This document shows, in pieces, positions 779 to 55,975 of a stretch of DNA of 64,000 nt. The notes below the pieces were generated by a model. The model was not told the origin of the DNA, ran no database searches, and saw only the letters and a list, made by a program, of their open reading frames with translations. The position numbers and the translations under genes are program-made. How positions within the stretch are numbered: the stretch's first letter is position 1; every line of letters starts with the position of its first letter. Source of the DNA: Candidatus Latescibacterota bacterium (lineage in GTDB: Bacteria > Latescibacterota > UBA2968 > GCA-2709665); NCBI GenBank assembly GCA_963667175.2, contig CAXXXF010000004.1, positions 224,001-288,000 of the forward strand, read 5' to 3'.

Positions 779-1843
779 CTATTGAACTCCTTCGATAGCA
801 GGCAATAGCAGATCCAATTGTTCCTTAGTTGCATACTTTTGGACGAACGATTCAACTCTTCCGGTATACAGTGCTTCCTGAAACCCTACCATAAACTCGC
901 GATAAAAAACCAGATTGTGCATTAAGACAGATTGGACGTACGGTAGTACGGGAGATTGACCCCACTCTGTTTGGTTTCGGATCAGATCCCATTGCTGGAA
1001 ATGTAACAGCCTGCCATTCTCGTGATCAACGACTGCCTGACACCATTCCAATCCATCAAAACTATCGGCTCCCGCCAATGTGTAGGCAATGATTGAAATC
1101 GGATTTCCGGTTCCAAGCAGGTGAAGCGGGCAATAGAAGCCTAATGCGTTTAACGCTACTCGGATTCTCCGTACGGTGCGAATCCGATCGAGAATTCCCT
1201 CACCTAAATCTCGTTCCGCGACAGCCAACAATAAAGGGTAGAGCTTTTCCGCTGTTAAACGCGCCGCATCAGGCAATTCTTCTGCGTTGCCATGGACTAT
1301 CGGAAGCACTGTTGTCTGTGCATTCTCCTGATCTCTTGTTACACCGGCCACGACATCGTCGGCGATCGATTTCGGAGAGTCAGGTGGCTTCAGGTTATCA
1401 AAACAGAAGCAGAGATCGTGTTGATAGGATTGCACGACCTTATGAAAATCAGCCGGTCCCCAATCGGAATCTTGTTTCCAATAGCTTTCGTAGTTTCCGC
1501 TATCAATAAGTACAACGGCACCGCTTTCTATACGTCTATTAAGGGCAGTTTCCATGCGAGGGCGCTGATCATCAGGACAATTGGCTAAATCATATGCAGA
1601 AGCTAAAAACAGTGGATGACCAGTAACGGTCAGAAAGTCAGCGTAACTGACCGGCGATAGGCTTGTCTTCACGCTCGAAACTGAAGGAAAGAAACAGGGT
1701 ACTTGAACGGTTGTCTCAGCGACGTATAACTCCTGGCTTCGTTCGATTGCCGTAGAGGATTCGACGTTTAGGTATTTGGCTCCATTGCAATGTTGGATTG
1801 TCATCTTAATCATCCTTGATTGCTTGAATCTGAAGAACGCCAC
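779..1843 (-). CDS. tRNA-guanine transglycosylase (TGT)-like protein; Cap10-like
   Basis: Motifs LIDSGNYES, FCFD, LPIVHG, LHLLGTGNP, GADSFDG, HNL, typical of the TGT barrel. The start may be 1804 (MTIQHC). Confidence 0.8.
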   Translation of the reverse strand: MAFFRFKQSRMIKMTIQHCNGAKYLNVESSTAIERSQELYVAETTVQVPCFFPSVSSVKTSLSPVSYADFLTVTGHPLFLASAYDLANCPDDQRPRMETALNRRIESGAVVLIDSGNYESYWKQDSDWGPADFHKVVQSYQHDLCFCFDNLKPPDSPKSIADDVVAGVTRDQENAQTTVLPIVHGNAEELPDAARLTAEKLYPLLLAVAERDLGEGILDRIRTVRRIRVALNALGFYCPLHLLGTGNPISIIAYTLAGADSFDGLEWCQAVVDHENGRLLHFQQWDLIRNQTEWGQSPVLPYVQSVLMHNLVFYREFMVGFQEALYTGRVESFVQKYATKEQLDLLLPAIEGVQ

Positions 1844-33260: not shown

Positions 33261-33280
33261 CGGCCGTCCGGGGAGATTAG

Positions 33281-33467
33281 CAGTCCGTTGAAAAAGTCGC
33301 TCTGCAGGCGAGGGCGAGTCATTGTGGCCGCAGACAAGGCGCGCCTGTCTGCGTGCCTGCCTGCGCCGAGACGTGCTCGGCAGGCAGGCGGACACGCACA
33401 GGCAGGCAACGCCGTATTTCGGTCACAAGGGCCGGACGCAGACCGGATGGACTTTATCAACGGGCTG
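33281..33467 (+). mobile_element. MITE copy 1 (187 bp)
   Basis: TIRs CAGTCCGTTGAAAAAGTC / GACTTTATCAACGGGCTG. Flanks TTAG/TCAG. Homologous to copies at 35026 and 43836. Confidence 0.85.
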
Positions 33468-33473
33468 TCAGAC

Positions 33474-34999: not shown

Positions 35000-35025
35000 G
35001 AAAGCAACCCATTGAGGACGTCTAA

Positions 35026-35295
35026 CAGTCCGTTGAAAAAGTCGCTCCGCAGGCGAGGCCGAGGCATTGTGGCCGAAGACAAGGCGCGCCTGTCTGCGTG
35101 CCTGCCTGCGCCGAGACGTGCTCGGCAGGCAGGCGGACACGCACAGGCAGGCGACCGACGCGAATCCCTGGATTCAGGGAGGGAGCGCCTGCCTGCCGCA
35201 GGCAGGCAACACGGTAATCCGGCCACAAGGGCCGGACACCTGTCTGCGTGCGAACGCACAGGCAGGCAGCCCGGATGTGCTTTTTCAAAGGGCTG
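35026..35295 (+). mobile_element. MITE copy 2 (270 bp)
   Basis: CAGTCCGTTGAAAAAG ... CTTTTTCAAAGGGCTG ends. Flanks CTAA/ATAA. Internal GCCTGCCTGC hairpins. Confidence 0.85.
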
Positions 35296-41943: not shown

Positions 41944-42030
41944 ATCCTGTCCGGCTTGCCTTGTTCTTGACGTCCGGCGGAACATTGTGTATACATTGAA
42001 AAACCGGTGCCTCAACGAAAGTATAGGACA

Positions 42031-42342
42031 ATGGCTGATTCGAAAGTAGACAGGCTCGTTGGCGAGGTCGTAAAGCGTGTGAATCCACTGCGAATCGTGC
42101 TCTTCGGCTCAGCAGCCAGAAACGAGTCAGGGCTGCAGGGCGACATCGATCTTCTGGTCGTCATGCCCGACGGCGCCCATCGGCGGCGAACCGCGCAGAA
42201 ACTCTACCGAGAAGTCAAAGGCCTGGCCGTACCATTCGATATTGTCGTCGCAACCGAACAGGACCTGAAAGAGCACAAAAACAATGACGGCCTGATCTAC
42301 AAGAACGCCCTCAGGGAAGGCATTGAAGTCTATGGGCTCTGA
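42031..42342 (+). CDS. minimal nucleotidyltransferase (MNT antitoxin)
   Basis: LFGSAAR...GDIDLLVV. Confidence 0.88.
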   Translation: MADSKVDRLVGEVVKRVNPLRIVLFGSAARNESGLQGDIDLLVVMPDGAHRRRTAQKLYREVKGLAVPFDIVVATEQDLKEHKNNDGLIYKNALREGIEVYGL

Positions 42343-42733
42343 GACTCAGGTTCCAGGGAATGCCGAAGACTGGCTGCGCTACGCCAGGAGCGACCTGAAG
42401 CTTGCCCGCATCGATAGGCCAGAGGGTGTCTTGCTGGAGAACCTTTGTTTTCATGCTCAACAGGCTGTAGAAAAGACGCTAAAGGCAGTTCTTGTGTTCC
42501 CTAAGGTACATTTCCCCACCACCCACAATATTCGAACATTGATCGATTTCTTACCTGATATGGATATTCCGGAGTTCGTAGAAGACTCCGCAGCTCTGAC
42601 GGACTATGCCGTTGTGTCTCGATATCCCGGAAACATCGAGCCGGTCGAAGAAAACAAATACCGGCATTCAATTTTCGTTGCAGAGGCAGTCCTGAGTTGG
42701 GCAGAGACGTTGATTTACAAAGGCGATACATGA
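42332..42733 (+). CDS. HEPN domain protein
   Basis: CFHAQQAVEKTLKA, THNI, SRYPG. Overlaps the MNT gene. Confidence 0.9.
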   Translation: MGSETQVPGNAEDWLRYARSDLKLARIDRPEGVLLENLCFHAQQAVEKTLKAVLVFPKVHFPTTHNIRTLIDFLPDMDIPEFVEDSAALTDYAVVSRYPGNIEPVEENKYRHSIFVAEAVLSWAETLIYKGDT

Positions 42734-43095
42734 ACAACGTCATTGAACATATCGATCGCCTGAAATCGGAGTTGGGCGAATTACGGCCATTGCCTTCCGA
42801 GGTCGTAGGGCGAATCGAGCAAAAGCTCCGGATCAAGTCCAATTACCACTCGAATGCCATCGAAGGCAACAGCCTGACGCTTGGAGAAACGAAAAGCGTG
42901 ATCCTCCATGGACTGTCCGCCCATGGCATGAGGATGCGGGATCATTTTGATATTGAGAGCCATGATGATGCGACAAAGGCAGTTGAGGATGCAGTCAAAC
43001 ACAACGAACCTCTCAATGAGATCTTCATTCGGAATCTCCACAAAATACCGTTGAAAGCGCCCGATAGAATCGCTACGTCCAATGAAGGCGTATAG
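42730..43095 (+). pseudogene. truncated Fic protein (N-terminal ~110 aa)
   Basis: About 74% aa identity by hand count to the N-terminus of Fic 47867. Lacks the HPFxxGNGR motif. Confidence 0.85.
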
Positions 43096-43150: not shown

Positions 43151-43846
43151 ATGAGAATTGAGCCCGAAATCTCCGGAGTTTCGCTCGTTATGCTTGGCCA
43201 TTTCAATCCTGTGATATTTACACCCGCCTGGTTCGGATGGCATCAGCTTCTACCTAAGAGGGTAATCGAAGTTGCAGATACGAACATTGCGCATCCCCAA
43301 ATTTCGAGCTTTAACGCCGATTGGCTCAACATTCAAGTCGTTCCCGAACGTATGCAAATGGATACAACCCAGCCGCCCTACGTTCGGATTCGAGACCTGG
43401 CTGTCCGAATATTTCTCGAACACCTTCACCATACACCGCTAACCTCTGTCGGTATTAACCGTGACGTCCACTTTTGCGTGCAGGACCATAAACAGAGAGA
43501 CCGACTCGGAAAATTATTGGCGCCCGCAGAGCCTTGGGGTGATTGGGCAGCAAAACTTGGCCTGGATGGAAACCGCGGTGGAATGGTATCCCTTACGATG
43601 AGACAGGTAGACCCTTGTAACAGACCGGTTGGCGGGCAAATTAACGTTAAGGTGGAGCCATCCAATAGGGTCGCGCAAGAGCTTCCCGGGGTATACGTTG
43701 GGGTCAATGACCACTACGTTGTAGGAAATGTGGAACCACAGACGCAAACCAGCGAAGTCGTTGAGTTGATCGAGGAGAAATTCGACGATTCATTGCGCCG
43801 TGCCGACGAAATTATCGATCACATAATGTCCTTGACAGCCCGTTGA
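43151..43846 (+). CDS. hypothetical protein, TIGR04255-like; last codons replaced by a MITE
   Basis: LVMLGHFNPVIFTPAWF, HTPLTSVGIN, INVKVEPS, VNDHY. Confidence 0.6.
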   Translation: MRIEPEISGVSLVMLGHFNPVIFTPAWFGWHQLLPKRVIEVADTNIAHPQISSFNADWLNIQVVPERMQMDTTQPPYVRIRDLAVRIFLEHLHHTPLTSVGINRDVHFCVQDHKQRDRLGKLLAPAEPWGDWAAKLGLDGNRGGMVSLTMRQVDPCNRPVGGQINVKVEPSNRVAQELPGVYVGVNDHYVVGNVEPQTQTSEVVELIEEKFDDSLRRADEIIDHIMSLTAR

Positions 43847-44206
43847 TAGAGTCCATCCGGGCTGCCTGCCTGTGCGTTCGTACGCAGACAGGCGTCCGGC
43901 CCTTGTGGCCGAAATACTGCGTTGCCTGCCTGCAGCAGGCAGGCGCTCCCTCCCCGAATCCAGGGAATCGCGTCGGTCGCATGCTTTGTCTTCGGCCACA
44001 ATGACAAGTGTTCCGTCCCGGAAATAGATTGCCGAAATTCGACCGCCGAGTCGCCCGGCTGGCAAGACGCCTGAGCGAGGCGACCTGCCCAGGGTCACCA
44101 AGCGAAGGCAACGCCGCCAGACGGGATGAATCGGCGGATGGATGGTGACATATTTCCGGGAAGGGACACCATACCTCGCCTGCAGAGCGACTTTTTCAAC
44201 GGACTG
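43836..44206 (-). mobile_element. MITE copy 3 (371 bp, inverted, extra internal segment)
   Basis: CAGCCCGTTGATAGAGTC ... GACTTTTTCAACGGACTG. Flanks TTGA/TTAA. Confidence 0.85.
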
Positions 44207-44223
44207 TTAACGGAGGAACAATA

Positions 44224-44835
44224 ATGCCAGATTCAGCAGCCGCACCTGAAAGCAATAGCTTACATAGTACATCCAGCCTCAACGATAATTCGAGCGATGC
44301 CAGTGCGCCTAACCAATTGCTTCGGGAAAGATATGCGGATCGGATTACGGCGACATTACAACAGCCTCGCATCCCTCCAACGCACGACACTGATGTCGCG
44401 GACACTACGATTGAGGATCAAGTGACGTCGGCCCGAATCGGATCCGATTTAGGCAAAGTAATAGATTTTCCTGATTTAGCCGGGGTTTCAAGAACCGCGC
44501 CCAGCAGCAGTTTCCATTTGCTTCAGGAATGGGAAGGCTACGTAATCTTGAAGGGAAAGGAAGACTTCACGGTACGGCTATTGGATCTAACCACAGGTTC
44601 CACGTATGAAGAGGAAGAAGCTGTTATACCATTTTCCGAGATCACGGACGACGAACGCAAGCGCATGGGTCCTGGTAGCATTTTTCGCTGGGTCATTGGC
44701 TACGAGCGATCCGCCAGTGGGACCAAACAGCGCGTATCCCGGATCGTCTTTCGCGATCTTCCTGTGCTTACGAAACAAGAAATAATGGAGGCCGACCAAC
44801 GGGCTAAGAGGACGTCTCGGTTATGGGCAGATTGA
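44224..44835 (+). CDS. hypothetical protein (low-complexity N-terminus, folded C-terminal domain)
   Basis: GGAGG RBS. LQEWEGYV..FTVRLLDLT..GSIFRWVIGY..RVSRIVFR. Confidence 0.75.
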   Translation: MPDSAAAPESNSLHSTSSLNDNSSDASAPNQLLRERYADRITATLQQPRIPPTHDTDVADTTIEDQVTSARIGSDLGKVIDFPDLAGVSRTAPSSSFHLLQEWEGYVILKGKEDFTVRLLDLTTGSTYEEEEAVIPFSEITDDERKRMGPGSIFRWVIGYERSASGTKQRVSRIVFRDLPVLTKQEIMEADQRAKRTSRLWAD

Positions 44836-45009
44836 CAGCAGTTGGCGAACCACCAGAACAGGACGTCCTGGAAGTAACCCTATTGGGACCTGGCTATGGA
44901 GAATGCATTTTACTTCACATAGGTAACGGGAGTTGGGTAATTGTCGATTCCTGCATTGATGTGGATTCGCGCCCGGCAGCGTTGGCATATTTTCAAGACC
45001 TCGGTCTAA

Positions 45010-46562
45010 CCTTGATTCCGCAAAAATCAGGCGGCTTTCTGTAGCGCGTTGCAGATTTTCCGGTATTGTTTTTCGGTGTGTTTGTTGCGTTGTAGTCTCA
45101 GGGTGAGTCGTCCTTTTGGTCGGACGAGGTATCCGGCTTTGTTGATGAGTTCGAACCGGAGTGTGCGTATGGATTTGAGGGCCCATCGGTTGGTACTTTT
45201 CAAGGTGCGATTGCGTTGTGTCAGTCCGGTTTCGATTTGGAAGTTGGCCAGGAGGTTATGAGCGAGAATGACGAACTGTTGCCAAGCGCTATTGGCGTGG
45301 TAATCGTTAGTGGGAATGGTATCGAAGCTGAGTCCGGTCTTGAGTTCGCCGATGGCTTTCTCGTGTGCGCCTCGGCCTGCCATGAAGCGCCACAGCGCGC
45401 GCAACTTGAGGGGTAGGTTGGTGGCCACCGCGGAGTATTCGAAGGTGCCGTCATTGGGATCGAACAGGTCCAACTGGTAGTTCTTGCGAGTTTTATGCAT
45501 CACGCGTTTTCGAAAGATCGCTATGTTGAACGTGCGTTTCCATTTCTTGATCGTCAGCGTTGACGTGAAGCCGTCGACGCCTTTCTCGATCCTTTGCCAG
45601 TGGGTGCGTTGTTGGATTTGCTGCCGCAAGTCCAGGCCTTTCCAGAAGGGCACTTTGATGGCGTATGAGGCCTTGTTCTTGATGAGCGTTTTAAGCACGT
45701 CTTCCTTGAAATAGTCGCCATCCATACGGAATCGGAGGGTGTAGGCATCCCCCAAGCTTTCTTCGACCTGGGTAAACACGTCCTTTAGAAACGGGATGGA
45801 GGCGCTGCCGTCATTGACGTTGCCTGGACGGTTGTGCACGCCCAGAAAATGACCACTGTCGGCCAGGTAGGCGGTAATCGGATAGTAACTGGGCACTTTA
45901 CGATGGTGCGGATTATAGCCACGACGGGCACCGTCGACGTGCTTTCCCGTGCACAAGACCGTGCCGTCGACGTCGATGGTTAACGTGCGGGCGCGTAGCG
46001 ATGGGAGCGCATCGGCTACAACGTCGGCGTTGAGGCGTTTCAGGGCTTCCACGCCACGCCCCGTAAAGCGCTTCAAAAAGCGGCTGACACTGTCGTCGGA
46101 GGGCAGGTCACACAGTCCACAAAACCGCTGTATCAGGGGGTCCCCTTTTAGGAAATTCAGATGTCGCAGCCGTCGCCCACCAACCACTAACAAGCCCAAG
46201 ATCACGCGAGAAAGACTCACTACACCAAAATCACCGCCACACACCACACCACGGAGTGAGCCACGCAATTGACGGTTCCATTCAATCTTTCGCAAAAAAC
46301 GCATGAACGGTTCCAATCCCGCATACGACGTGAGGCCTTCACCGGTGAATTCCATCTCCAATTTGTCGTTGACACGACACCGTAAATCCGCTTTCTTTCG
46401 TCTCACAGCAGGTGGCCTTTCGTTTTGAGTTAAATGGGGGTATTGTCGCTTCCCAATATACCAAAATGAAAGGCCTTTTCCTATTGAAAATTATACACTT
46501 ATTCACAATTTGACGCCAACTTCATTGTAACGGAACTCAACCGCTTTTTTGCGGAATCAAGG
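45010..46562 (-). mobile_element. IS1380-family insertion sequence (1553 bp)
   Basis: Perfect 17-bp IR CCTTGATTCCGCAAAAA. 4-bp target duplication CTAA at 45006-9 and 46563-6. Confidence 0.93.
45027..46406 (-). CDS. IS1380-family DDE transposase
   Basis: LTSYAGL, TIDVDGT, RMDGDY, RGAHEKAIGELK, ANSAW. Confidence 0.92.
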   Translation of the reverse strand: MRRKKADLRCRVNDKLEMEFTGEGLTSYAGLEPFMRFLRKIEWNRQLRGSLRGVVCGGDFGVVSLSRVILGLLVVGGRRLRHLNFLKGDPLIQRFCGLCDLPSDDSVSRFLKRFTGRGVEALKRLNADVVADALPSLRARTLTIDVDGTVLCTGKHVDGARRGYNPHHRKVPSYYPITAYLADSGHFLGVHNRPGNVNDGSASIPFLKDVFTQVEESLGDAYTLRFRMDGDYFKEDVLKTLIKNKASYAIKVPFWKGLDLRQQIQQRTHWQRIEKGVDGFTSTLTIKKWKRTFNIAIFRKRVMHKTRKNYQLDLFDPNDGTFEYSAVATNLPLKLRALWRFMAGRGAHEKAIGELKTGLSFDTIPTNDYHANSAWQQFVILAHNLLANFQIETGLTQRNRTLKSTNRWALKSIRTLRFELINKAGYLVRPKGRLTLRLQRNKHTEKQYRKICNALQKAA

Positions 46563-47507
46563 CTAAACCCTGCTGATGTCGTTCGCCTTATTGTCGCGTC
46601 TCATTGGCATGACGACCACATACGAGGAATTGGAGAATTGGTCGATGTCTGCGCCAATGCGCATTTCTGCTGCGCATCTGCCCTTCGAGCAGAGGAATTT
46701 CTTGCCATGATGGACTCTGTAGCAAGCCGTCCGATGTCTAATGTAAGTTCTGGAATGCAGGAACTCTATACGGTCCGATCTCTTCTCGAAAAGAGATCCG
46801 TCAAACCCCTTTTCGCAATAGCAAATCGTAGAATCTTCAGGTGTGACAATTGCGAATTATGGTCCCTCTCGCCATTTGATAAGCATGTCGATGTCTTTTT
46901 GCGCCAAATTGACCGAATCCGACCTCAAGAAGGGGCGACAAAAAGGCGAATACACAGCTTGACTCCCAACGAAATTTCGGTTGTCCTGTTAGTCAAAATC
47001 GACAATACGGCGATTCTCCTGGGTTCCGATCTTGAAAGGCCGGGCTGGTTGGAAATACTCGCCTCAAATGAAAGACCGAATTGCAAAGCGTCGGTATTCA
47101 AGATTCCGCACCATGGTTCCCGAAACGCCCACGAGGATCGAGTTTGGACTGAGATGCTACACGACAATCCGATAGCAACTCTCACTCCATGGAAGAAAGG
47201 TGGACGAAGTTTGCCAGATGAAACGGATGTAACACGAATTCTATCTTTCACCCGAAAGGCTTACGCTACCTCAGCGTTACGAGTTTCCAATCGCAAACCC
47301 GCACGCAGACGAGCTAAGACGGTCGAAAAGTCCATTAGAGAAGTTAGCAAAAGGATCGGCGCCATAGCCCGCTCTTCCGGAATGATCCGGCTCCGCAGGG
47401 AGTTCGCGTCAAAACTCGACTGGGATATTACGATTGTTGCGCCAGCTCGCCAATTGATGTAATTAGCGGTGGTTCAAATTCAGAATTGGCAACACTACGC
47501 TTTTAGA

Positions 47508-47815
47508 ATAGGGTAAGCCGGTCCGTCGGCACAGGATGTTTCTACCGTTGGCTGCGCGCGTTGCCTGCTTCCCCAACGACGGCGGCCTTCCCCGATCGAT
47601 AGACGGACGGCGCCCGTATTATCTTTTTCTAGGCCTGCTCAGCGTTCACTGCGCGTTTCGGCCTGCATACTCGCCAAGTCGCCTTGCGGCCCTCGACACC
47701 GGAGGCTTGGGAGAGGTCGTTACCCTCATTCCCCGCACCGATTGCTACCGACCGAAGCAACAATTGTCGGGTGGGTCTCTCACCCACTGGAGTTCCGCGC
47801 CTTTTCATGGCGCAC
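47508..47815 (-). mobile_element. internally deleted, ORF-less group II intron relic (308 nt)
   Basis: Minus strand starts GTGCGCCATGAAAAGGCGCG...GTGGGTGAGAGACCCAC (domain I-like) and ends GCCGACGGACCGGCTTACCCTAT (domain VI-like, ..AT). No domain V or RT seen. Confidence 0.7.
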
Positions 47816-47866
47816 TGTCGATTTAAGGCTAAGTTGGGAAGAATCACTGATCTGCAGAAACAGACC

Positions 47867-49192
47867 ATGAGCAACGTCATTGAAAAAATCGATGCGTTGA
47901 AAGCGGAGTTGGACGCATTGCGGCCGCTGCCACCCGATGTTGTGGGGCGAATTGAGCAAAAGCTCCGAATTGAGTCGAACTATCACTCCAATGCCATCGA
48001 AGGCAACAGCCTGACCCTCGGAGAAACGAGAAGCCTGATTCTGCACGGCCTCACTTCTCATGGGAAGTCCATGCGCGACCATCTGGATATCGAGGGGCAC
48101 GACGAAGCGGTAAAGGCGATTGCGGATGCAGTCGAACGAAACGAATCTCTCAATGAAGTCTTCATCAGAAATCTTCACGGCGTACTGCTGAAGCAGCCGT
48201 ATGAGATTGACGCAATCAAGCCGGATGGGGAACCGACGAAGCGACTCATTTCCATCGGTAAATACAAGACACTTTCCAATAACGTGAGAACGACTACGGG
48301 TGAAATCTACTATTTCACGCCCCCCGACCAGGTAAAGCCGGCAATGAGCGACCTCATCGACTGGTATCGGCGAGCCGAGAAAGAGGGAGAGCATCCGATT
48401 GTCATCGCGGCGACGTTTCACTATCGTTTCGTCAGGATTCATCCGTTTGACGATGGGAACGGGCGCATGGCTCGGCTTCTGATGAACATGATCCTGATTA
48501 AACACGGCTATACTGTGGCAGTTGTACCCATACAACAAAGAAGCCGATACATCAGCACGCTGGAACAGGCCGACAATTCAGAAGACCTGTCCGAGTTTAT
48601 TGAGTGTATCGCGGAAAATTGCGAAAATACCCTGAATCTCCATCTGCGCGCCGCCCGTGGCGAGGACATCGAAGACGTCGAGGACATCGATAAAGAGATC
48701 GCGCTCTTTAAACGATCGATTCAAACTGGCGGAGGTGAGTTGTTTCAGGCCAGAGCGTACGCTGGGAACGTGCTGTATCCGCTTTTTTCCTATTGCAAAG
48801 AAAAATGTGAGCAATTTTCCGGCATGTTCGAAAGTGTCAATGCAGATAATGGTGAATGTTCTGTGAGAAATGCGGATGACAACGTCTCAAGTCTTGATCT
48901 GACTAAGGATCAAGTTAAAGCTTGGCCGGAATACGCCGTGTACGTTTCTACATCTTTGCTGATTTCCCTCAATCAATTTCAGGCCAAACAAGATGCCGAT
49001 TTTTTAATCCAAATTGAGAATGAAGTTGGATCGCATGGCTCCGTCTGGCGGTTTATGTCAATGGGACTTGACTACGAAAGAGAATATGCGGGTCAGGACC
49101 TGGAGGTACTCAAGAGGATGTTTAACGATATTATCAGGCAACTCATGGTAAGCCTCTCAGAGATTTCGGACGATCGGAAGGATGAGGAATAA
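47867..49192 (+). CDS. Fic family protein with C-terminal extension
   Basis: HPFDDGNGRMAR, plus N-terminal SNAIEGN autoinhibitory motif. Confidence 0.93.
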   Translation: MSNVIEKIDALKAELDALRPLPPDVVGRIEQKLRIESNYHSNAIEGNSLTLGETRSLILHGLTSHGKSMRDHLDIEGHDEAVKAIADAVERNESLNEVFIRNLHGVLLKQPYEIDAIKPDGEPTKRLISIGKYKTLSNNVRTTTGEIYYFTPPDQVKPAMSDLIDWYRRAEKEGEHPIVIAATFHYRFVRIHPFDDGNGRMARLLMNMILIKHGYTVAVVPIQQRSRYISTLEQADNSEDLSEFIECIAENCENTLNLHLRAARGEDIEDVEDIDKEIALFKRSIQTGGGELFQARAYAGNVLYPLFSYCKEKCEQFSGMFESVNADNGECSVRNADDNVSSLDLTKDQVKAWPEYAVYVSTSLLISLNQFQAKQDADFLIQIENEVGSHGSVWRFMSMGLDYEREYAGQDLEVLKRMFNDIIRQLMVSLSEISDDRKDEE

Positions 49193-49238
49193 CGAGGCGA
49201 ACGGACGATATGGCGCGAATTCCGGACGTAGGCAAACC

Positions 49239-50408
49239 ATGAGAAAATACCAGAAGACCCATCCCTGGATCACGTTTCAAGTCGATCTTCGTGATGTGCC
49301 GTATTCGCTTTGGATGAAACTGGGCGAATGCGCTTCCAAGATCGAGCACGTCTCCAGGGCGCCGCTCGTTCATGAATCGGCGGAGGACCTCTATAAGGTT
49401 TATCTGGCCAAGGGCGTCCATGCCACGACCGCCATTGAAGGAAATACCCTGTCCGAAGAGGATGTGTTGCGGCATATAGAGGGAAAACTGGAACTGCCCC
49501 CCTCGCGGGAGTATCTGGTCCAGGAGATTGACAACATTATTAAGGCGATCAACGCTACAATCAAGGGAATGCGCGAGGGGTCGGTCCAGCCTCTGGATTT
49601 CGAATGGATCAAAGAGGTGAATAGAGCCGTTCTCGACAAACTCGACCAACAGGAAGGTTCCATTCCGGGCACGATTCGAACCCACTCCGTGGGCGTGGGC
49701 AGGCGATATCGAGGCGCGCCCGCGGAGGATTGCGAACACCTGCTGGAGAAACTATGCAACTGGCTACGAGATGAATTCAAGGTACCGGCAGGCGAGGAGA
49801 TTACGTTTGCAATCATCAAGGCGGTAATGGCCCATCTTTATGTGGCATGGATCCATCCGTTTGGAGACGGCAACGGCCGCACGGCGAGGTTGCTGGAATT
49901 CGCAATCCTGTTGCGGTCGGGCATACCGGTACCCGCCTGTCACCTATTGAGCAGCCATTATAGCGCCACGCGTGTCGAATACGCGCGCCAACTCGCGCGG
50001 ACCAGCCAATCCGGTGGAAAGGTCGTACCCTTTCTCGCCTATGCCGTACAGGGATTCCTCGACGGGCTTCACGGTCAACTGGAGATGATCTGGAAGCAGC
50101 ATCTGGATATCGTTTGGCAGCACCACATATATCAGCATTTTCCAAGGCAGGATACTGTCGCTGGAAAAAGGCGCCGCGCCCTGCTTCTGGATCTATCGGC
50201 CGGCGATCAAGCAGTAGATCCATTGTCATTAATGATGACAGGTGACCGCTTAGGCGAGTCCTACAGGGAAAAACCATGGATCATCATGAAGGATCTACAA
50301 TGGCTCACGGAGAAGAATTGGATTACAAAGGAAGGGAACAGCTACTGCGCCAATAAGGAAACAATGCTGAAACGCCGGCCGTTTCGTGTGCCTTCAAGTG
50401 GGAGTTAA
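49239..50408 (+). CDS. Fic family protein
   Basis: HPFGDGNGRTAR, TTAIEGN. Start could be 49182. Confidence 0.92.
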   Translation: MRKYQKTHPWITFQVDLRDVPYSLWMKLGECASKIEHVSRAPLVHESAEDLYKVYLAKGVHATTAIEGNTLSEEDVLRHIEGKLELPPSREYLVQEIDNIIKAINATIKGMREGSVQPLDFEWIKEVNRAVLDKLDQQEGSIPGTIRTHSVGVGRRYRGAPAEDCEHLLEKLCNWLRDEFKVPAGEEITFAIIKAVMAHLYVAWIHPFGDGNGRTARLLEFAILLRSGIPVPACHLLSSHYSATRVEYARQLARTSQSGGKVVPFLAYAVQGFLDGLHGQLEMIWKQHLDIVWQHHIYQHFPRQDTVAGKRRRALLLDLSAGDQAVDPLSLMMTGDRLGESYREKPWIIMKDLQWLTEKNWITKEGNSYCANKETMLKRRPFRVPSSGS

Positions 50409-50417
50409 CTGGAATTG

Positions 50418-50732
50418 ATGAGCGCAAGAATCGACGTTCCAAAGAAAAAGATCGCCACCTTCTGCCGGCGAAACGGTATCCGTCGCATGGCCCTGTTCGG
50501 CTCGGTACTGCGCGACGACTTCACGCCCGAGAGCGACGTGGATGTACTCGTGGAGTTCGAGCCAGGCAAGACGCCGGGACTGGCGTTCTTCACCATGCAG
50601 GACGAGTTGTCGGAAATATATGGGAGAAGAGTGGATCTCCACACCTTCCGGGGCGTCGAAAGCAACCCCAATTGGCTGCTTCGGAAGGAAATACTCGGCT
50701 CGGCGGAGGCGGTCTATGACCAGGCGGGATGA
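50418..50732 (+). CDS. minimal nucleotidyltransferase (MntA-like)
   Basis: LFGSVLRDDFTPESDVDVLVEF. Confidence 0.9.
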   Translation: MSARIDVPKKKIATFCRRNGIRRMALFGSVLRDDFTPESDVDVLVEFEPGKTPGLAFFTMQDELSEIYGRRVDLHTFRGVESNPNWLLRKEILGSAEAVYDQAG

Positions 50733-51888: not shown

Positions 51889-54867
51889 ATGTCAATGAGG
51901 AAAAAGCGAAGCCGATTCGTCAGCGCGGCGATGCGGTCGAACGCGGTGGCGAATGCGAAGAGACACGACTGGGCGAGCGAGCGACAGGAGCGCGCGGTTG
52001 CGGCGGCCGGCGAGTGGGTCGGCCGCACCGACGATGCGTTGTGGGGCATGGTCACCGCGCAGGAGTTGCCGCGGACGGTCTACACCAACGAAGGGGTGAC
52101 GTACAAGGGACAGCAGCCCTATTGCCCCGGATGCGGCGAAGCGGCCCCGGCGAAATCCGGGCGCGAATGGTGGGAGTTCGACGACGCCAGGCCATGGAAA
52201 ATCTGGTGCGAACACTGCGGAGAGGTGTATCCGAAAAACGACTTCGGCGCCTTCTACAGGACGGCCCTGGACGAGCACGGGATGTTCCGTCGTGAGTTGG
52301 GCGACCGGTCGCTGCTGTTCAATGCCGATCATCCGGATCCGGACGACCCCCTGCACGAACGCTACGTCGACGACGGGTATGGCATGTTCGACGAGCAGGG
52401 CAATCGACACGATATCATCGCATACTACAATTTCGAAGCCGTGTGGCGCCGGATACAGCAGGGCGTTGCCGCGCTGTCCGACGCGTACGCGCTCACCAAT
52501 GACCGGCGCTACGCACATAAAGCGAGCGTTCTGCTGGACCGGATCGCCGACGTCTATCCGGAGATGGACTACCTGCCGCTGCACGAAATGGGATTTCAGC
52601 ACAGCCAGGGCGGTTCCGGGAGAGGTCGGATCGAGGGTTGCATCTGGGAAACCTTCGTCGCACAGGGCCTCGCGCGCAGCTACGACGTCATCTTCGACGG
52701 CCTTCAGGGCGACGAAGAACTGGTGGCTTTCTGCTCGGACAGAGCCGGGAAATATGACCTGGGGGACAAAGAGAGCATCGCCGCAATCTGCGGACATATC
52801 CACGATCACCTGCTTTTAGAGGTGCTTGCCTCTGTTAAGGACGGCCGGATCAGCGGTAACACGGGCATGAACCACACGTCCCTCGCCACCGCCGCGATCG
52901 CTCTGGACCATCCGGAACTGACGCCCGAATGGCTGGACTGGCTGTTCCATCCCGGGTTTCCCGGAGACCACTCAGCTCAGCATGATCCGGTGTCGTGGGT
53001 GCTGACCGAGGGGCTGGACCGGGATGGCATGGGCGGCGAGTGCGGGGGATACGGTCTCATCTGGACCCGCCACATGCGGGAACTGGCACAGATTCTGTCC
53101 GCATGGCCGGAATACACGAAACACAATCTCGTCGAGGATTACCCGAAGCTCAAACAGGCTTATCTCGTGGAGTCCCGGCTGAACGTCCTGGATGGCATGA
53201 TGCCCAATACGGGCGACAGCGGCGCCGTGGGCGCGTGGGGCCGGCAGGGCGATGCCGCGACCTATGTCCGGGCGTACCGGCTGTACGGAGACCCGCGTTT
53301 CGCGGCCCTGGCCTGGCACGAACACTCCGCGCACGGTTCCACGCTGCGCCTGGACGACGATATCTTCCGCGAGGATCCGGACGCGCTGATCCGTGAGATT
53401 CGAAACGTCGGGCGAAAAGGCCCGGACAACCTCACGAGCGAACATTTCGGGCGGTACGGACAGGCGCAATTGCAGACCGAACGGCCGGAAAACGGCCGCG
53501 CCGTGTTCATCCACTACGGGCAGGGCAAGGGCCACTCCCACCACGATGCTCTCAACCTGGGACTGCTGGCGAACAACGTGGCGATGATGCCGGACCTCGG
53601 CTATCCCGAATATACGGGAACGTGGCCCAAACGGCACGCGTGGACCGCCAACACGATCAGTCACAATACGCTGCTGGTGGGGGATACGAGGTCGGCGTAC
53701 AGCCCCGGCGGACAGGTCGAGTACTTCGCCGTCGAACCGCCCCTGAGAGCGATCCAGGTGGATGCGCCAGACGCCTATGAGGATTTGCAAACCTACCGGC
53801 GCACCGTCGCCCTGGTCGACGTGGACGAGGACAACAGCTACGTGCTGGACGTGTTCCGGGCACGGGGCGGGAGCAACCACCGTCTGTCCTGGCATGGCGC
53901 CGCGGAAACGGCTGACGTTGCCGGCCTGGAACTCGTCGTTCAGAAAGGCGGCGCCTTCGCGGGTTCCGACGTTTCGTTCGCCACGCTGGACGGCGAGAAC
54001 GCAGACTTCTTCAAAGAGAGCGGCTTCACGTACCTGTACGACGTGGAACGCTCACCCGGGGCGGTCCGGAAGCCCTACCGGGTCGACTGGAAGATCGAAG
54101 ATATCCACGGACGAATTTCGGAAGGCTGCGAGCCGCACCTTCGCCTGCACGCGCTTACGCCCTGCGATGAGGTGGCGCTCGCCACAGGGGATTCGCCGCG
54201 GCGGCTGCAGCGGCCCAGGTATCTGATCCAGAGCAGGCTGGGCGAGGAGATGCAAAGCATATATCTCAACGTCCTGGAACCTTACGATACAAATCGGTTC
54301 ATCTCTCGGGTGCGAGAACTGGAGGTGAGGCACGACGGGGATGCCTGCTGTGCCGCAGCCGTGGCCGTGGAACTATTCGACGGCCACACGGACGTCCTGA
54401 TCAGCTGTGAGGAAGCGATGGAAGTCGAAGTGGACGGCGGGATCAGGTTCGACGGTACCCTTGGACTGATCCGCCTGGCGAGGGATGAGGTGAAGCTGAT
54501 GCGAATGATCGGCGGCACGTCACTCGCTGTCGGTGGCGTTGAACTGACAGCGGAACGCCCGGCATGGCGCGGGAGGGTGACAGGGACCGACGCTTCCGAC
54601 CCGGCGAACAATCTGGTTGACCTGGATCCGCCACTTCCGGCCGGTCCCGACCTCGTCGGCCGCACGATCCATTTCATCAACGATCTGCCGATGGACACGA
54701 GCTACAGGATCGCGGCCGTCACGAACGGCGGCGTCTCAACGGGCGACATTACGATTGTCCGGGGGCTAAGGGAAGGCACGGATCTCGCGGGTGGGTACAC
54801 TTACCTGGTCAATCCCGGGGACGAATACATCGTCCCGTCGATCGCAGGGCTCGGAGAAATGACCTAA
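51889..54867 (+). CDS. heparinase II/III-like polysaccharide lyase family protein
   Basis: GHSHHDALNL, PDLGYPEY, WTANTISHNTLLV. CxxC pairs near the N-terminus. Confidence 0.8.
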   Translation: MSMRKKRSRFVSAAMRSNAVANAKRHDWASERQERAVAAAGEWVGRTDDALWGMVTAQELPRTVYTNEGVTYKGQQPYCPGCGEAAPAKSGREWWEFDDARPWKIWCEHCGEVYPKNDFGAFYRTALDEHGMFRRELGDRSLLFNADHPDPDDPLHERYVDDGYGMFDEQGNRHDIIAYYNFEAVWRRIQQGVAALSDAYALTNDRRYAHKASVLLDRIADVYPEMDYLPLHEMGFQHSQGGSGRGRIEGCIWETFVAQGLARSYDVIFDGLQGDEELVAFCSDRAGKYDLGDKESIAAICGHIHDHLLLEVLASVKDGRISGNTGMNHTSLATAAIALDHPELTPEWLDWLFHPGFPGDHSAQHDPVSWVLTEGLDRDGMGGECGGYGLIWTRHMRELAQILSAWPEYTKHNLVEDYPKLKQAYLVESRLNVLDGMMPNTGDSGAVGAWGRQGDAATYVRAYRLYGDPRFAALAWHEHSAHGSTLRLDDDIFREDPDALIREIRNVGRKGPDNLTSEHFGRYGQAQLQTERPENGRAVFIHYGQGKGHSHHDALNLGLLANNVAMMPDLGYPEYTGTWPKRHAWTANTISHNTLLVGDTRSAYSPGGQVEYFAVEPPLRAIQVDAPDAYEDLQTYRRTVALVDVDEDNSYVLDVFRARGGSNHRLSWHGAAETADVAGLELVVQKGGAFAGSDVSFATLDGENADFFKESGFTYLYDVERSPGAVRKPYRVDWKIEDIHGRISEGCEPHLRLHALTPCDEVALATGDSPRRLQRPRYLIQSRLGEEMQSIYLNVLEPYDTNRFISRVRELEVRHDGDACCAAAVAVELFDGHTDVLISCEEAMEVEVDGGIRFDGTLGLIRLARDEVKLMRMIGGTSLAVGGVELTAERPAWRGRVTGTDASDPANNLVDLDPPLPAGPDLVGRTIHFINDLPMDTSYRIAAVTNGGVSTGDITIVRGLREGTDLAGGYTYLVNPGDEYIVPSIAGLGEMT

Positions 54868-55048
54868 ACCTACTCACACAAAGACACCAAGACACAAAGA
54901 AAACCGGAAACAACCAAAAGACGGGCAACCCGGAGAGATAGTGACGGGAGACGGGAGACGAATACGTCGTACCCTCATTCACAGGGCTCGGAGGAATGAC
55001 CTAAACCTACTCACACAAAGACACCAAGACACAAAGAAAACCGGAAAC
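54817..55048 (+). repeat. 137-bp-period direct repeat: gene tail plus CACAAAGACACCAAGACACAAAG motif
   Basis: Units 54817-54911 and 54954-55048. The last ~50 nt are identical. Confidence 0.85.
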
Positions 55049-55085
55049 GAAATTCTTCACTCTACGCATGGGACATTTCGGATCG

Positions 55086-55469
55086 ATGAATGAAAACGAG
55101 ATAGGTGCAGAGGTCGTGAATTGTGCGGTCCGCCTCCATAAGGATCTTGGCCCAGGCTTGCTTGAATCGGTCTATGAAGTGATTCTGGCAAAGCAGCTTC
55201 AGACGGCTGGCATGAAAGTTAAAGTGCAGGCGCCAATACCAATTGAGTTCGAAGGAGTGCGATTCTCCGAAGCATTTCGCGTGGATATAATCGTCGAGGA
55301 CCGCGTCATCCTGGAGTTGAAATCAATTGAGAAAATCACGAGAGCACACCGGAAGCAAGTCCTTACCTACCTCAAATTGACCGATTTGAAGCTCGGCTTT
55401 ATACTGAACTTTGGCGCCGCAACAATGAGGGAGGGCATTGCTCGAATTATCAACGGCAAGATCACGTAG
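55086..55469 (+). CDS. GxxExxY protein (PD-(D/E)xK-like)
   Basis: LGPGLLESVYE, RVDIIVE..ILELK, QVLTYL..GFILNF. Confidence 0.92.
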   Translation: MNENEIGAEVVNCAVRLHKDLGPGLLESVYEVILAKQLQTAGMKVKVQAPIPIEFEGVRFSEAFRVDIIVEDRVILELKSIEKITRAHRKQVLTYLKLTDLKLGFILNFGAATMREGIARIINGKIT

Positions 55470-55509
55470 ACCGTTTTTGATTTAGACCTCTTGCACTGGT
55501 TAGAAGCGC

Positions 55510-55975
55510 CGTGTGTCCCCCTGGCCATCTCGCTAGCAACGGCCCCTGACCAGTGTTGCATTTCTCCGTGTCTTTGTGTCTTCGTGTGAGAACGGGTTTG
55601 CTGGTTTCATCACCCCATCCGCTCGTAGTCCGCCCGCCGGGTCAATCTAAGGCGTGCAACACTTCAAGTGACGGTAAAATCTCGTGCGTCCCCCTGGCCA
55701 TCTCAACAGCAACATCCCCTGACCTGCCTTGCATTTCTTCGTGTCTTTGTGTGAGACGGATTTTGTGGCTTTTCTCACGCCATCCGCCCATAGTCCGCCC
55801 GCCGGGTCAATCCAAGACGTTCAGCACGTCAGATGGCGGAAAAATCTCGGTGCGTCCGCTAGGCTTTCTTGACAGCAAGGTCCCCTGACCCTTCTTGCTT
55901 TTCTCCGTGTCTTTGTGTCTTTGTGTGAGGAGGGTTATGTGGGTTTCATCACCCCATCCGCTCGTAGTCCGCACG
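55510..55975 (-). repeat. three diverged ~170-bp tandem units containing the GNAT 3' end and an inverted CACAAAGACAC motif
   Basis: tcac.ccatccgc...tagtccgc at 55610, 55775 and 55949. Each is preceded by gtgtctttgtgt and cccctgacc. Confidence 0.8.

Follow-up and report, generated by a model that had tools for sequence, protein, structure and literature searches.

We showed that three genes at positions 43,151 to 47,462 of the window (the whole stretch of 64,000 nucleotides that was analysed) constitute a genuine, translationally coupled operon with an effector of the metallo-beta-lactamase (MBL) fold, inactivated by two mobile elements, a MITE and an IS1380-family insertion sequence. With a probability of roughly three in four, these genes are the decayed remains of a DS-42-family cassette, a three-gene anti-phage unit that is widespread and horizontally mobile. 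The first-pass annotation had described the operon and both insertions, and its coordinates and sequence statements proved correct throughout; the anatomy, the relatives in other genomes and the empty insertion sites of locus L007 all agree. Its view that the system is undescribed has to be given up, because the operon matches an already named one, the homologous E. coli prophage operon DS-42, which has been scored as defensive.

Structure of the interrupted operon

The operon lies in an island of lowered G+C content (0.49-0.55 across 42-51 kb of the window vs 0.60-0.65 on either side) and, as had been noticed at the outset, among Fic and MNT-HEPN genes, all on the plus strand. Upstream, an MNT-HEPN pair (42007..42733; MNT 42007-42342, HEPN 42323-42733) is followed by a truncated Fic-family fragment of 132 aa (42697..43095), which directly precedes gene 1 and whose nucleotide sequence is 75% identical to that of the downstream Fic gene over the N-terminal part of the latter. 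The downstream group (47684..50732) consists of this Fic gene (47684-49192), a SoFic-like Fic gene (49182-50408) and an MNT gene (50415-50732).

Gene 1 (43151..43846, plus strand, ATG at 43151) now encodes 231 aa instead of the 232 aa encoded before the MITE arrived; its present stop is TGA (43844-46) and the protein ends ...MSLTAR. The MITE (copy 3 in the window, 371 bp, 43836..44206) sits within the third-from-last codon, has the terminal inverted repeats CAGCCCGTTGA... and ...TCAACGGACTG, and is bordered by an imperfect 4-bp repeat, TTGA (43832-35) and TTAA (44207-10). Two further copies are located at about 33278-33470 and 35023-35295, both on the minus strand. The original 3' end of gene 1 (44211..44224, plus strand) has been orphaned beyond the element and reads ..G GAG GAA CAA TAA, its TAA (44222-24) overlapping the ATG of gene 2 (44224-26) as TAATG. 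The corresponding region is uninterrupted at the MITE-free site of L007 (...ATGTCCTTGACGGAGGAACAATAATG), and the relatives P0002, P0003 and P0005 have the ending ...MSLTEEQ that had been reconstructed for gene 1. Taken together, the L007 site and these endings demonstrate that the MITE alters just the C-terminal three residues of the gene 1 product. It leaves about 380 bp between genes 1 and 2, which it has uncoupled.

Gene 2 (44224..44835, plus strand, 203 aa) is intact, and its TGA (44833-35) falls within the start of the MBL gene (ATG 44823), the two genes overlapping by 13 nt (start context ATGGGCAGATTGA). The MBL gene spans 44823-47462 and is interrupted by a 1553-bp insertion, which separates a 5' fragment (44823..45009, plus strand, 62 codons + 1 nt) from a 3' fragment (46563..47462, plus strand, 298 codons from 46566). 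The inserted element (45010..46562, minus strand, transposase ORF 45027-46406) is bounded by perfect inverted ends of 17 bp and flanked by a CTAA target duplication (45006-09 and 46563-66), and its transposase scores 220.5 bits against NF033539 (cut-off 180); transposase, terminal inverted repeats and 4-bp target duplication place it in the IS1380 family. The corresponding site is free of the element in L007 (GGGCTAAACCCTGCTG), and the 360-aa MBL protein P0241, 97% identical to the C-terminal fragment of the window, reads through the junction (...YFQDLGLNPADVV...HWHDDH), which bears out the uninterrupted 360-aa protein proposed earlier. Because IS1380 splits the MBL gene, the window cassette is dead and cannot be active.

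Features of the three proteins

The predicted metal site of the MBL protein (HWHDDH...D...HHGS) is preserved. The N-terminal fragment contains a VDSC motif, and the C-terminal one holds HWHDDH, GSDLE and PHHGS together with an extension of about 100 aa at its end; these motifs are invariant columns in 46 homologues. The HxHxDH motif with downstream Asp and His ligands identifies a member of the metallo-beta-lactamase fold superfamily, and PF00753 is precomputed on all but 8 of the 120 homologues listed, while on its own the window fragment reaches 20.8 bits and narrowly misses the cut-off of 22.7.

For gene 1, an AF2 model predicted an alpha/beta saddle fold (pLDDT 89.7, pTM 0.87), and no Pfam, NCBIfam or PADLOC match was obtained; RefSeq names the E. 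coli and plasmid copies of this first protein “hypothetical protein”. The nearest ESM Atlas cluster, a protein-language-model neighbour with a score of 0.98, is auto-named TIGR04255, which is a lead to distant kinship only. The “TIGR04255-like” label given to gene 1 was not upheld by HMM searches: this NCBIfam model matched neither the window protein, nor P0002 or P0009 at E <= 10, nor, at E <= 1, any one of the 132 representatives of the family, a negative to be read with the provisos that HMMER filters drop weak matches and that the presence of the model in the NCBIfam copy is unconfirmed.

Gene 2 likewise matched no Pfam, NCBIfam or PADLOC family. Its N-terminal part (about 90 residues) is variable and disordered, in line with the partial disorder first reported for it, and the C-terminal part (about 105 residues) forms a conserved five-strand barrel and helix with the motif QEWEGYV...GSIFRWVIGYERS...RVSxIVFRDLP. 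Fold searches with genes 1 and 2 returned TBP/RepDE-like and OB-like matches which are weak (TM <= 0.34; E 1e-4 to 7e-2), so that “saddle” and “OB-like” name shapes here, not families.

Relationship to DS-42

DS-42 (working name PRO1) is a three-gene E. coli prophage system from the DefensePredictor study (PMC13092281), in whose Table S6 it is listed as defensive = 1 with the proteins WP_249925928.1, WP_001024069.1 and WP_001198055.1. The annotated copy of strain ECOR29 carries exactly these accessions. Carried on a plasmid in MG1655, the system was scored as defensive, and one plaque-assay row gives 1.10 log10 of protection (about 12-fold) against phage Bas1, a modest effect on a single phage, along with a “Y” flag (PMC13092281). 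The main text of that paper does not mention DS-42 and contains neither a mechanism nor a description of its components; an HHpred run belonging to the study assigned the E. coli MBL protein to cd07731 (ComA-like MBL fold) with a probability of 0.998.

Homology could be traced protein by protein. For the first one, hmmsearch with profiles of the window family recovered the ECOR29 protein at 2.4e-18 and 4.8e-27, hhalign against profile A3 (first row, the close relative P0002) gave 98.6% and E 5.9e-16 over 186 columns, and BLASTP found 23% identity over 113 aa (1e-7). The third was matched at 7.6e-67 by hmmsearch, and P0241 aligned with it by BLASTP at 31% over 322 aa (2e-49). For the second protein the link is weaker than for the other two, with moderate support from sequence comparison: 6.3e-10 (27.8 bits) by hmmsearch, 86.8% and E 4.2e-6 by hhalign, 25% over 75 aa (5e-7) by BLASTP, and a common motif in the conserved C-terminal part (SIFRWVIGYE in the window, AIFYWYVGME in E. 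coli). Both systems encode, in the same order, a protein of about 235 aa, one of about 190-200 aa and a ComEC-like MBL hydrolase of about 360 aa, and the frames overlap or abut in the window (insertions allowed for) as well as in ECOR29, F5 and FWSEC0010. On the strength of these alignments, the window operon is a distant relative of DS-42, homologous gene for gene. The two differ in that identity is just 23-31%, that DS-42 is a moron of lambdoid prophages whereas the window copy occupies a chromosomal island of a high-GC genome that is most closely related to Latescibacterota MAGs, and that the DS-42 copy scored defensive but the window copy is broken.

Distribution of the cassette

Among 621, 1458 and 2751 candidates scored for gene 1, gene 2 and the MBL gene, 442, 1180 and 1229, respectively, were database relatives at E <= 1e-3. 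Judged by such conservation, the three ORFs are not chance reading frames. From 177 confirmed relatives, 80 loci were kept, and synteny, proposed initially as a check, was found: in 57 of them, from 12 phyla, the complete trio is intact, co-directional and constant in order. In 17 others gene 2 is accompanied by remnants of gene 1, of the MBL gene or of both, in unchanged order, and another locus is situated at a contig end. In the intact trios the pairwise distances calculated for one protein correlate with those for the others (r = 0.66-0.83), and the tree of these trios contains several well-supported cross-phylum sister pairs. Deep variants of the same architecture are present on an Adhaeribacter plasmid, on a Pantoea conjugative plasmid and in E. 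coli lambdoid prophages, where the cassette lies between the Q antiterminator and holin genes (3/3 loci inspected).

When up to four neighbouring ORFs on either side were considered, a defence-type gene was present, by raw count, in at least 38 of the 80 loci, and about half have no recognised defence neighbour; the neighbouring ORFs were called by a longest-ORF heuristic, not a gene caller, and the scan covered all but 94 of the 166 singleton nearest neighbours. The most frequent host locus is Hma/BR (15 loci), recognised by matches to HmaC (2.6e-98), HmaB (8e-77) and a PLD-SNF2 helicase; type III R-M genes occur in 10 loci, and other neighbours are Fic, MNT/HepT, PtuA, NsnA and PDC-S01.

Comparison with other systems

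The MBL protein weakly matches ComEC and the defence MBL profiles RTasMBL (2e-13), LmuA (3e-9 to 2e-11) and Avs1a. Assignment to 6A-MBL, Avs1a, the Lamassu LmuA hydrolase or the DRT-associated MBL was rejected, as the scores are far under the cut-offs (e.g. 21.3 bits vs 420 for Avs1a) and the cognate partners are absent: no ubiquitin-like, STAND NTPase, protease, LmuB or RT genes were seen beside the trio in related loci. The 6A-MBL system of Pseudomonas aeruginosa (NF058524; 25.3 bits, cut-off 220) likewise acts against phages through an effector of the MBL fold, but it includes ubiquitin-related elements (PMC13276650), which the window-type cassette lacks.

Protease-associated defence MBLs are Zn-dependent dsDNA nucleases, described as MBL-fold zymogen effectors that occur with Avs, Hachiman, DRT and other sensors (bioRxiv 2025.11.14.688446); HamMAB/Liu-DS5 is one such case (bioRxiv 2025.12.08.692795). 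As characterised in these reports, they resemble the window-type protein in being defence-linked and in their remote ComEC/RNase J similarity, and would share with it a latency that lasts until infection, whereas the window type has no protease, STAND, helicase or RT partner and is accompanied instead by two small proteins of unnamed families. The MBL nuclease domain of ComEC/Rec2 shares the metal-ligand motifs of the window-type protein, and sequence searches against solved structures place it with the top matches (9ic4_A, 3.2e-4; 30bt_A, 6.4e-4); in contrast to ComEC, the window-type protein is soluble, 360 aa long and devoid of competence or membrane domains, and it reaches 22.6 bits against the ComEC profile (cut-off 190).

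Possible mode of action and alternative explanations

A tentative model, which we consider somewhat less than an even bet as a whole, is that of a ComEC-like DNase effector controlled by two small partner proteins. The MBL-fold protein would be the metal-dependent DNase, a role suggested by its invariant HxHxDH, D and HH motifs, the weak matches to ComEC and to defence MBL profiles, the cd07731 assignment of the E. coli protein and the nuclease activity of protease-associated defence MBLs. The stop/start overlaps suggest that both small proteins are made in fixed proportion to it. They would keep it inactive or aim it, gene 1 (the large alpha/beta saddle) acting as a sensor or scaffold, and gene 2 as a nucleic-acid-binding or adaptor subunit by way of its OB-like barrel and fast-evolving disordered N-terminal tail, until a phage cue releases or recruits the nuclease. 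A protease would play no part, unlike in the characterised defence MBL zymogens.

Some of the same features could be expected of an addiction module that chiefly stabilises mobile islands and protects against phages at most as a side effect. Tight translational coupling suggested by the gene overlaps, a potentially toxic MBL effector, a gene 2 product that is half disordered, carriage on plasmids and prophages, and an MBL gene often found broken (13/74 loci, with three loci cut by a contig end left out) would all fit, and the trio is analogous to toxin-antitoxin-chaperone systems in having three coupled small genes, one with a potentially toxic product and one whose product is partly disordered. 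The first-pass annotation had drawn this analogy, casting gene 1 as a sensor or chaperone and gene 2 as an antitoxin-like partner, roles that are speculative. However, no SecB-like chaperone, known toxin or antitoxin family was matched by any of the three proteins in Pfam, NCBIfam or PADLOC, so that membership of that class was rejected. The breakage of the MBL gene per length (13 per 360 aa) is not clearly above that of gene 1 (6 per 232 aa), some of the frameshifts may be assembly errors, and the orthologous E. coli operon scored as phage-defensive (PMC13092281), all of which makes a primarily addictive role decidedly improbable. A housekeeping module for DNA uptake or repair, unrelated to conflict, is strongly disfavoured: the weak similarity of the MBL protein to ComEC speaks for it, but that protein has no domains of the membrane or competence type, the trio occurs patchily and across phyla, its settings are low-GC islands, prophages and plasmids, its neighbours include R-M, Hma and TA genes, and no conserved link to competence or repair genes was seen among related loci.

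Another alternative is that the anti-phage cassette does not act alone. In 11 loci from several phyla it is inserted within an Hma (DUF499/DUF1156) operon, between HmaC(-DUF7680) and HmaB-HmaA, and in L005 and L009 it is enclosed by the type III Mod and Res genes. It might accordingly be a non-autonomous accessory or backup effector of Hma/type-2 BR and type III R-M, firing when these are inhibited or overwhelmed; embedded backup nucleases have a precedent as a concept in BREX/BR loci (PMC12839542), and PARIS-like modules have been proposed to act so inside BREX loci. Hma/type-2 DUF499-centred BR is a separate system (ATPase, methylase and PLD-helicase) that is absent from the window, and the main text of the cited paper contains no occurrence of MBL, lactamase or ComEC. 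Dependence on such a host is unlikely, given that many cassettes are solitary between housekeeping genes (e.g. L037, with Fpg / trio / GGT, as well as L076/L080 and L057/L079), that the E. coli prophage morons have no Hma gene in the annotated stretch, and that plasmid-borne DS-42 was scored as defensive in MG1655 (PMC13092281).

A more speculative version of the model, to which we give a low probability, treats the cassette as a self-contained backup immune module, repeatedly nested in Hma/BR and type III R-M loci and endowed with a new, protease-free control of its DNase. The saddle sensor and the OB-like adaptor with its hypervariable disordered tail might then detect aberrant DNA or an anti-restriction factor of the phage. 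If true, this would be a control of a ComEC-like DNase not yet described among defence MBLs, and transfer would have carried the module into at least 12 phyla. The lineages that carry the module include Poribacteria and Entotheonella, known as sponge symbionts.

Two insertions in a coupled operon

The region examined consists of three reading frames, all in one orientation, and two insertions. We located gene 1, gene 2, the MBL-fold gene, the MITE and the IS1380 element, in agreement with what the first-pass annotation had read from the sequence, and found the empty sites of both the MITE and IS1380 in L007, a locus from a related Latescibacterota MAG. That annotation had proposed an undescribed three-gene defence operon struck by two mobile elements. 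The defence operon and the two strikes are upheld by our analysis; the novelty is not, as the operon is a distant, broken member of the already validated DS-42 family (working name PRO1), whose E. coli prophage representative was reported in the DefensePredictor study (PMC13092281).

Gene 1 lies on the plus strand, with its ATG at 43151 and its present TGA (43844-46) located within the MITE. The latter (copy 3; 43836-44206, 371 bp) is flanked by TTGA and TTAA, and its ends (CAGCCCGTTGA... and ...TCAACGGACTG) are common to two further copies in the window. The orphaned last codons of gene 1 are found downstream of the element (44211-44224), where their TAA overlaps the ATG of gene 2 as TAATG. 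The C-terminus obtained when the insertion is removed agrees exactly with that of the close relatives P0002, P0003 and P0005 (...MSLTEEQ). P0001 (97% identical to gene 1) ends in ...MSLTAR, as in the window; the MITE insertion is thus present in a second record and is no assembly artefact. It altered only three residues of gene 1, yet broke the coupling to gene 2.

The three MITE copies in the window (33278-33470, 35023-35295 and 43836-44206; about 190, 270 and 371 bp, respectively) have the common ends CAGYCCGTTGA...TCAACGGACTG. Two of them are flanked by the 4-mers NTGA (left) and NTAA (right), which resemble the CTAA target of the IS1380 copy. Judging from this likeness, the MITEs and IS1380 may be served by the same transposase family.

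Gene 2 (44224-44835, plus strand) is intact, and the MBL-fold gene begins 10 nt before its TGA. The MBL-fold gene (start 44823, end 47462, plus strand) is interrupted after codon 62 and was destroyed by the insertion of IS1380 (45010-46562, 1553 bp), an element whose inverted ends match perfectly over 17 bp, which is flanked by a duplicated CTAA and whose transposase scores 220.5 bits (cut-off 180). The repaired reading is matched exactly by P0241, an uninterrupted 360-aa MBL protein (97% identical to the C-terminal fragment in the window), which reads ...YFQDLGLNPADVV...HWHDDH. The MBL gene is also broken in the closest genome relative (L007, 8585-12003), where two insertions of about 1.1 kb each, at sites other than that of the IS in the window, divide it into three.

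The operon sits, as had been noted, in a low-GC island (G+C 0.49-0.55 versus 0.60-0.65 on either side), and its flanks carry an MNT-HEPN gene pair, a Fic fragment, two Fic genes and a second MNT gene. The Fic fragment (42697-43095, 132 aa), just upstream of gene 1, is 75% identical at the nucleotide level to 47829-48128, where the full Fic gene downstream of the trio encodes its N-terminal part. Because of this identity, and because the upstream position is held by a full-length Fic gene in three related loci (L005, L009 and L015), the fragment looks like a truncated paralogue. In an otherwise ORF-poor stretch (54817-55975), repeats of 95-133 nt, some direct and some inverted, are clustered and have a CACAAAGACACCAAGACACAAAG-type motif in common. 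No tRNA or tmRNA genes were found across the whole 64-kb window.

Conservation of the cassette

Database relatives at E <= 1e-3 numbered 442 for gene 1, 1180 for gene 2 and 1229 for the MBL protein (621, 1458 and 2751 candidates scored, respectively), and source contigs of equal size recur across the three lists. The gene 2 alignment was scanned over one genome per species, which gave 177 confirmed relatives and 80 retained loci, and the profiles of all three proteins were run on every ORF of these loci. The predicted three-gene synteny was borne out: 57 of the 80 loci carry a complete trio, with intact, adjacent or overlapping genes in preserved order and on the same strand. Among the remainder, gene 1 is intact and the MBL gene broken in 11 loci (three of them cut by a contig end), both are broken in four, gene 1 is broken with the MBL gene absent in one and with the MBL gene intact in another, one locus lies at a contig end, and five hold the C-terminal domain of gene 2 alone. 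We considered preferential inactivation of the MBL gene as a sign of toxicity and dropped it: per unit length, its breakage is about equal to that of gene 1, and frameshifts in MAGs may be sequencing errors, so the breakage is no evidence of toxicity.

Pairwise protein distances among the three genes of the 57 intact trios are correlated (r = 0.66, 0.78 and 0.83). Representatives of 12 phyla make up a FastTree phylogeny of the concatenated proteins, in which the phylum label changes 16 times (minimum possible 11) and well-supported sisters from different phyla occur, e.g. Poribacteria with Latescibacterota and Thermodesulfobacteriota with Pseudomonadales. These comparisons fit a trio that would move as a single cassette, a tree of related sequences alone being no proof of transfer. 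Two further observations concern individual loci. In a Thermodesulfobacteriota locus (L074), a degraded second copy of genes 1 and 2 (916-1523, minus strand) is found some 5 kb away from the intact one. The flanks of L038 (labelled Latescibacterota) match those of L039 (labelled Gemmatimonadetes) at 93-95% identity for some 7 kb on each side; either one bin is taxonomically mislabelled or a large segment was transferred very recently.

Relationship to the DS-42 system

Searching plasmids with the MBL protein (tblastn) revealed the same trio on a plasmid of Adhaeribacter swui and a more divergent one on a conjugative plasmid of Pantoea agglomerans. With the latter as query, a sensitive blastn search detected a gene annotated as "MBL fold metallo-hydrolase" in at least 15 of 5426 complete E. 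coli genomes, a lower bound since the DNA similarity is weak. Three of these 15 loci were inspected (ECOR29, F5 and O113:H21 FWSEC0010). Each carries a trio of overlapping genes that ends with the MBL gene; in ECOR29 the products are of 238, 190 and 363 aa. The trio occupies the classic moron position, flanked by the prophage genes for the Q antiterminator and the holin and carried on the opposite strand.

Profiles built from relatives of the window proteins matched the first, second and third ECOR29 proteins with E-values of 2.4e-18, 6.3e-10 and 7.6e-67, and hhalign gave 98.6% and 86.8% for the first and second; the BLASTP identities are 23%, 25% and 31%. In the annotation of the ECOR29 chromosome, these proteins bear the very three accessions that Table S6 of PMC13092281 lists for the PRO1 transcription unit, which is scored there as defensive (defensive = 1) and named DS-42; the strain list of that study includes MG1655 pCV1-PRO1. 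One row of its plaque assay data, marked with a "Y" flag, gives a protection of 1.10 log10 against phage Bas1. A unit counted as validated in that study when plaques were smaller or the efficiency of plating fell ten-fold or more, the panel comprising 24 phages. The first protein received a per-gene log-odds score of 4.87 there, the second one of 1.00 and the MBL protein one of 0.20; the HHpred run of the study assigned the MBL protein to cd07731 (ComA-like MBL fold). DS-42 is confined to the supplementary tables of PMC13092281 and goes without mention in its main text.

For the window, this result is deflationary, because the supposedly hidden system is a dead, distant copy of one already cloned and scored defensive in E. 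coli. The DS-42 family itself is barely described, and none of Pfam, NCBIfam and PADLOC offers a model for either of its small proteins. Three aspects appear to be new: how broad the family is, that it is repeatedly nested in operons of the Hma and type III R-M systems, and which folds are predicted for the small proteins. Since the family is large and recurrently nested in this way, and contains a putative defence MBL nuclease without a protease partner, the E. coli DS-42 operon offers a tractable entry point into a possibly new mode of licensing such a nuclease.

Genetic neighbourhood

Up to four ORFs per side of each cassette were collected with a longest-ORF heuristic instead of a gene caller (556 ORFs, 413 clusters). 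Pfam was scanned with 66 recurring clusters and 72 of 166 singleton nearest neighbours, and PADLOC with 28 ORFs (27 defence-like or unannotated representatives of recurring clusters plus one more neighbour from L053). A defence-type gene neighbours the cassette in at least 38 of the 80 loci, a figure that describes association rather than measured enrichment, as it comes without a background control.

Genes of the Hma system, alias type-2 "BR" (PMC12839542), stand out most among the neighbours; they occur in 15 loci and on both flanks of the cassette in 11. HmaC/DUF499 (2.6e-98) is found upstream, often followed by a DUF7680 protein, and the HmaB/DUF1156 methylase (8e-77) with a PLD-SNF2 helicase downstream; these flanks are 72-81% identical in nucleotide sequence between phyla. 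The backup nucleases listed in PMC12839542 as embedded in BREX/BR loci are of the HNH, HKD, PD-(D/E)XK, TOPRIM/OLD, HEPN, PIN and Schlafen types, and the terms MBL, lactamase and ComEC are absent from its main text. In L053 (6323-6832) and four other loci, the DUF7680 protein (170 aa) stands between HmaC/DUF499 and the trio, the position that the same paper gives to DUF3780; our literature search found no mention of DUF7680.

In ten loci, from Latescibacterota relatives, the cassette stands next to type III Mod and Res or between them, in the company of Fic and MNT genes (most clearly in L005 and L009). Further neighbours are PtuA, NsnA/GmrSD, PDC-S01, an AAA16-TPR NTPase and an E2-E1-JAB-patatin fusion. 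The last is a 1136-aa ORF beside the trio of L019 (9896-13303, minus strand), which combines prokaryotic E2, ThiF (E1), JAB and patatin domains in one protein. Numerous copies stand alone amid housekeeping genes (L037, L038/L039, L057/L079 and L076/L080), which argues for an autonomous, insertable unit.

Predicted roles of the three proteins

The label "TIGR04255-like" given to gene 1 proved unsupported, its sole basis being an ESM Atlas neighbour cluster auto-named TIGR04255 (score 0.98), a name for which the literature search found no mention. Neither gene 1, its homologues at E <= 10 nor 132 diverse family members gave a Pfam, NCBIfam or PADLOC match, the scattered Pfam matches among the 132 being at chance level only. 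Against PDB sequences, the gene 1 profile gave only low-complexity matches to designed "Bagel" proteins. The family comprises 1681 clusters (50% identity) at E <= 1e-3 and 159 at E <= 1e-30. The AF2 model is confident (pLDDT 89.7, pTM 0.87) and predicts an antiparallel sheet in two lobes with helices behind and a long C-terminal helix; Foldseek against the PDB returned weak matches only (RepDE at 1.2e-4, then TBP and AdoMetDC; TM <= 0.34).

In the gene 2 model, nearly all of residues 1-89, a stretch also variable in the alignment, have pLDDT < 50, and residues 95-203 form a confident five-strand barrel with a helix. The barrel matches OB-type domains weakly (E 0.01-0.07), namely the LysRS N-terminal domain, aIF5A, an RNA-exosome chain, Rim1 and Teb1. 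Among viral proteins, the best match was one of 113 aa from Cronobacter phage GAP32 (5e-4).

The MBL protein has the invariant columns HxHxDH, a downstream Asp and an HH pair. It matches phrog_28593 over nearly its full length (1.8e-39), and ComEC and the defence MBL profiles RTasMBL, LmuA, PDC-M48B and Avs1a weakly. Neither this protein nor gene 2 matched the phage genome collection by tblastn. Membership in 6A-MBL (25 versus a cut-off of 220 bits), Avs1a (21 versus 420 bits) and Lamassu (far under the cut-off) was ruled out, the cognate partners being absent in each case.

We propose that the effector would be the MBL protein, acting as a ComEC-like DNase, which would be controlled by a saddle-shaped sensor or scaffold (gene 1) and by an adaptor of OB-like shape whose tail is disordered (gene 2), and that this control would need no protease. 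The DNase role is suggested by ComEC and by the protease-associated defence MBLs, which were shown to be latent Zn-dependent dsDNA nucleases (bioRxiv 2025.11.14.688446).

A 931-aa ORF in L044 (8399-11191) matches the MBL N-terminus over its first ~140 residues but not beyond; it could be an in-frame insertion or a fusion. Stand-alone ORFs of 113-133 aa that correspond to the conserved C-terminal barrel of gene 2 alone occur in L015, L018, L058, L062, L077 and L082 (7968-8369), with neither gene 1 nor the MBL gene near. On an Acetobacter plasmid, the barrel ORF is preceded by an unrelated 234-aa protein, which was ruled out as a relative of gene 1 (hhalign 0.7%). The L058 ORF has a PtuA-like ATPase on one side and a pair of ATPase and S8-protease genes on the other, and that of L015, which comes after a Fic gene, looks like a deletion remnant.
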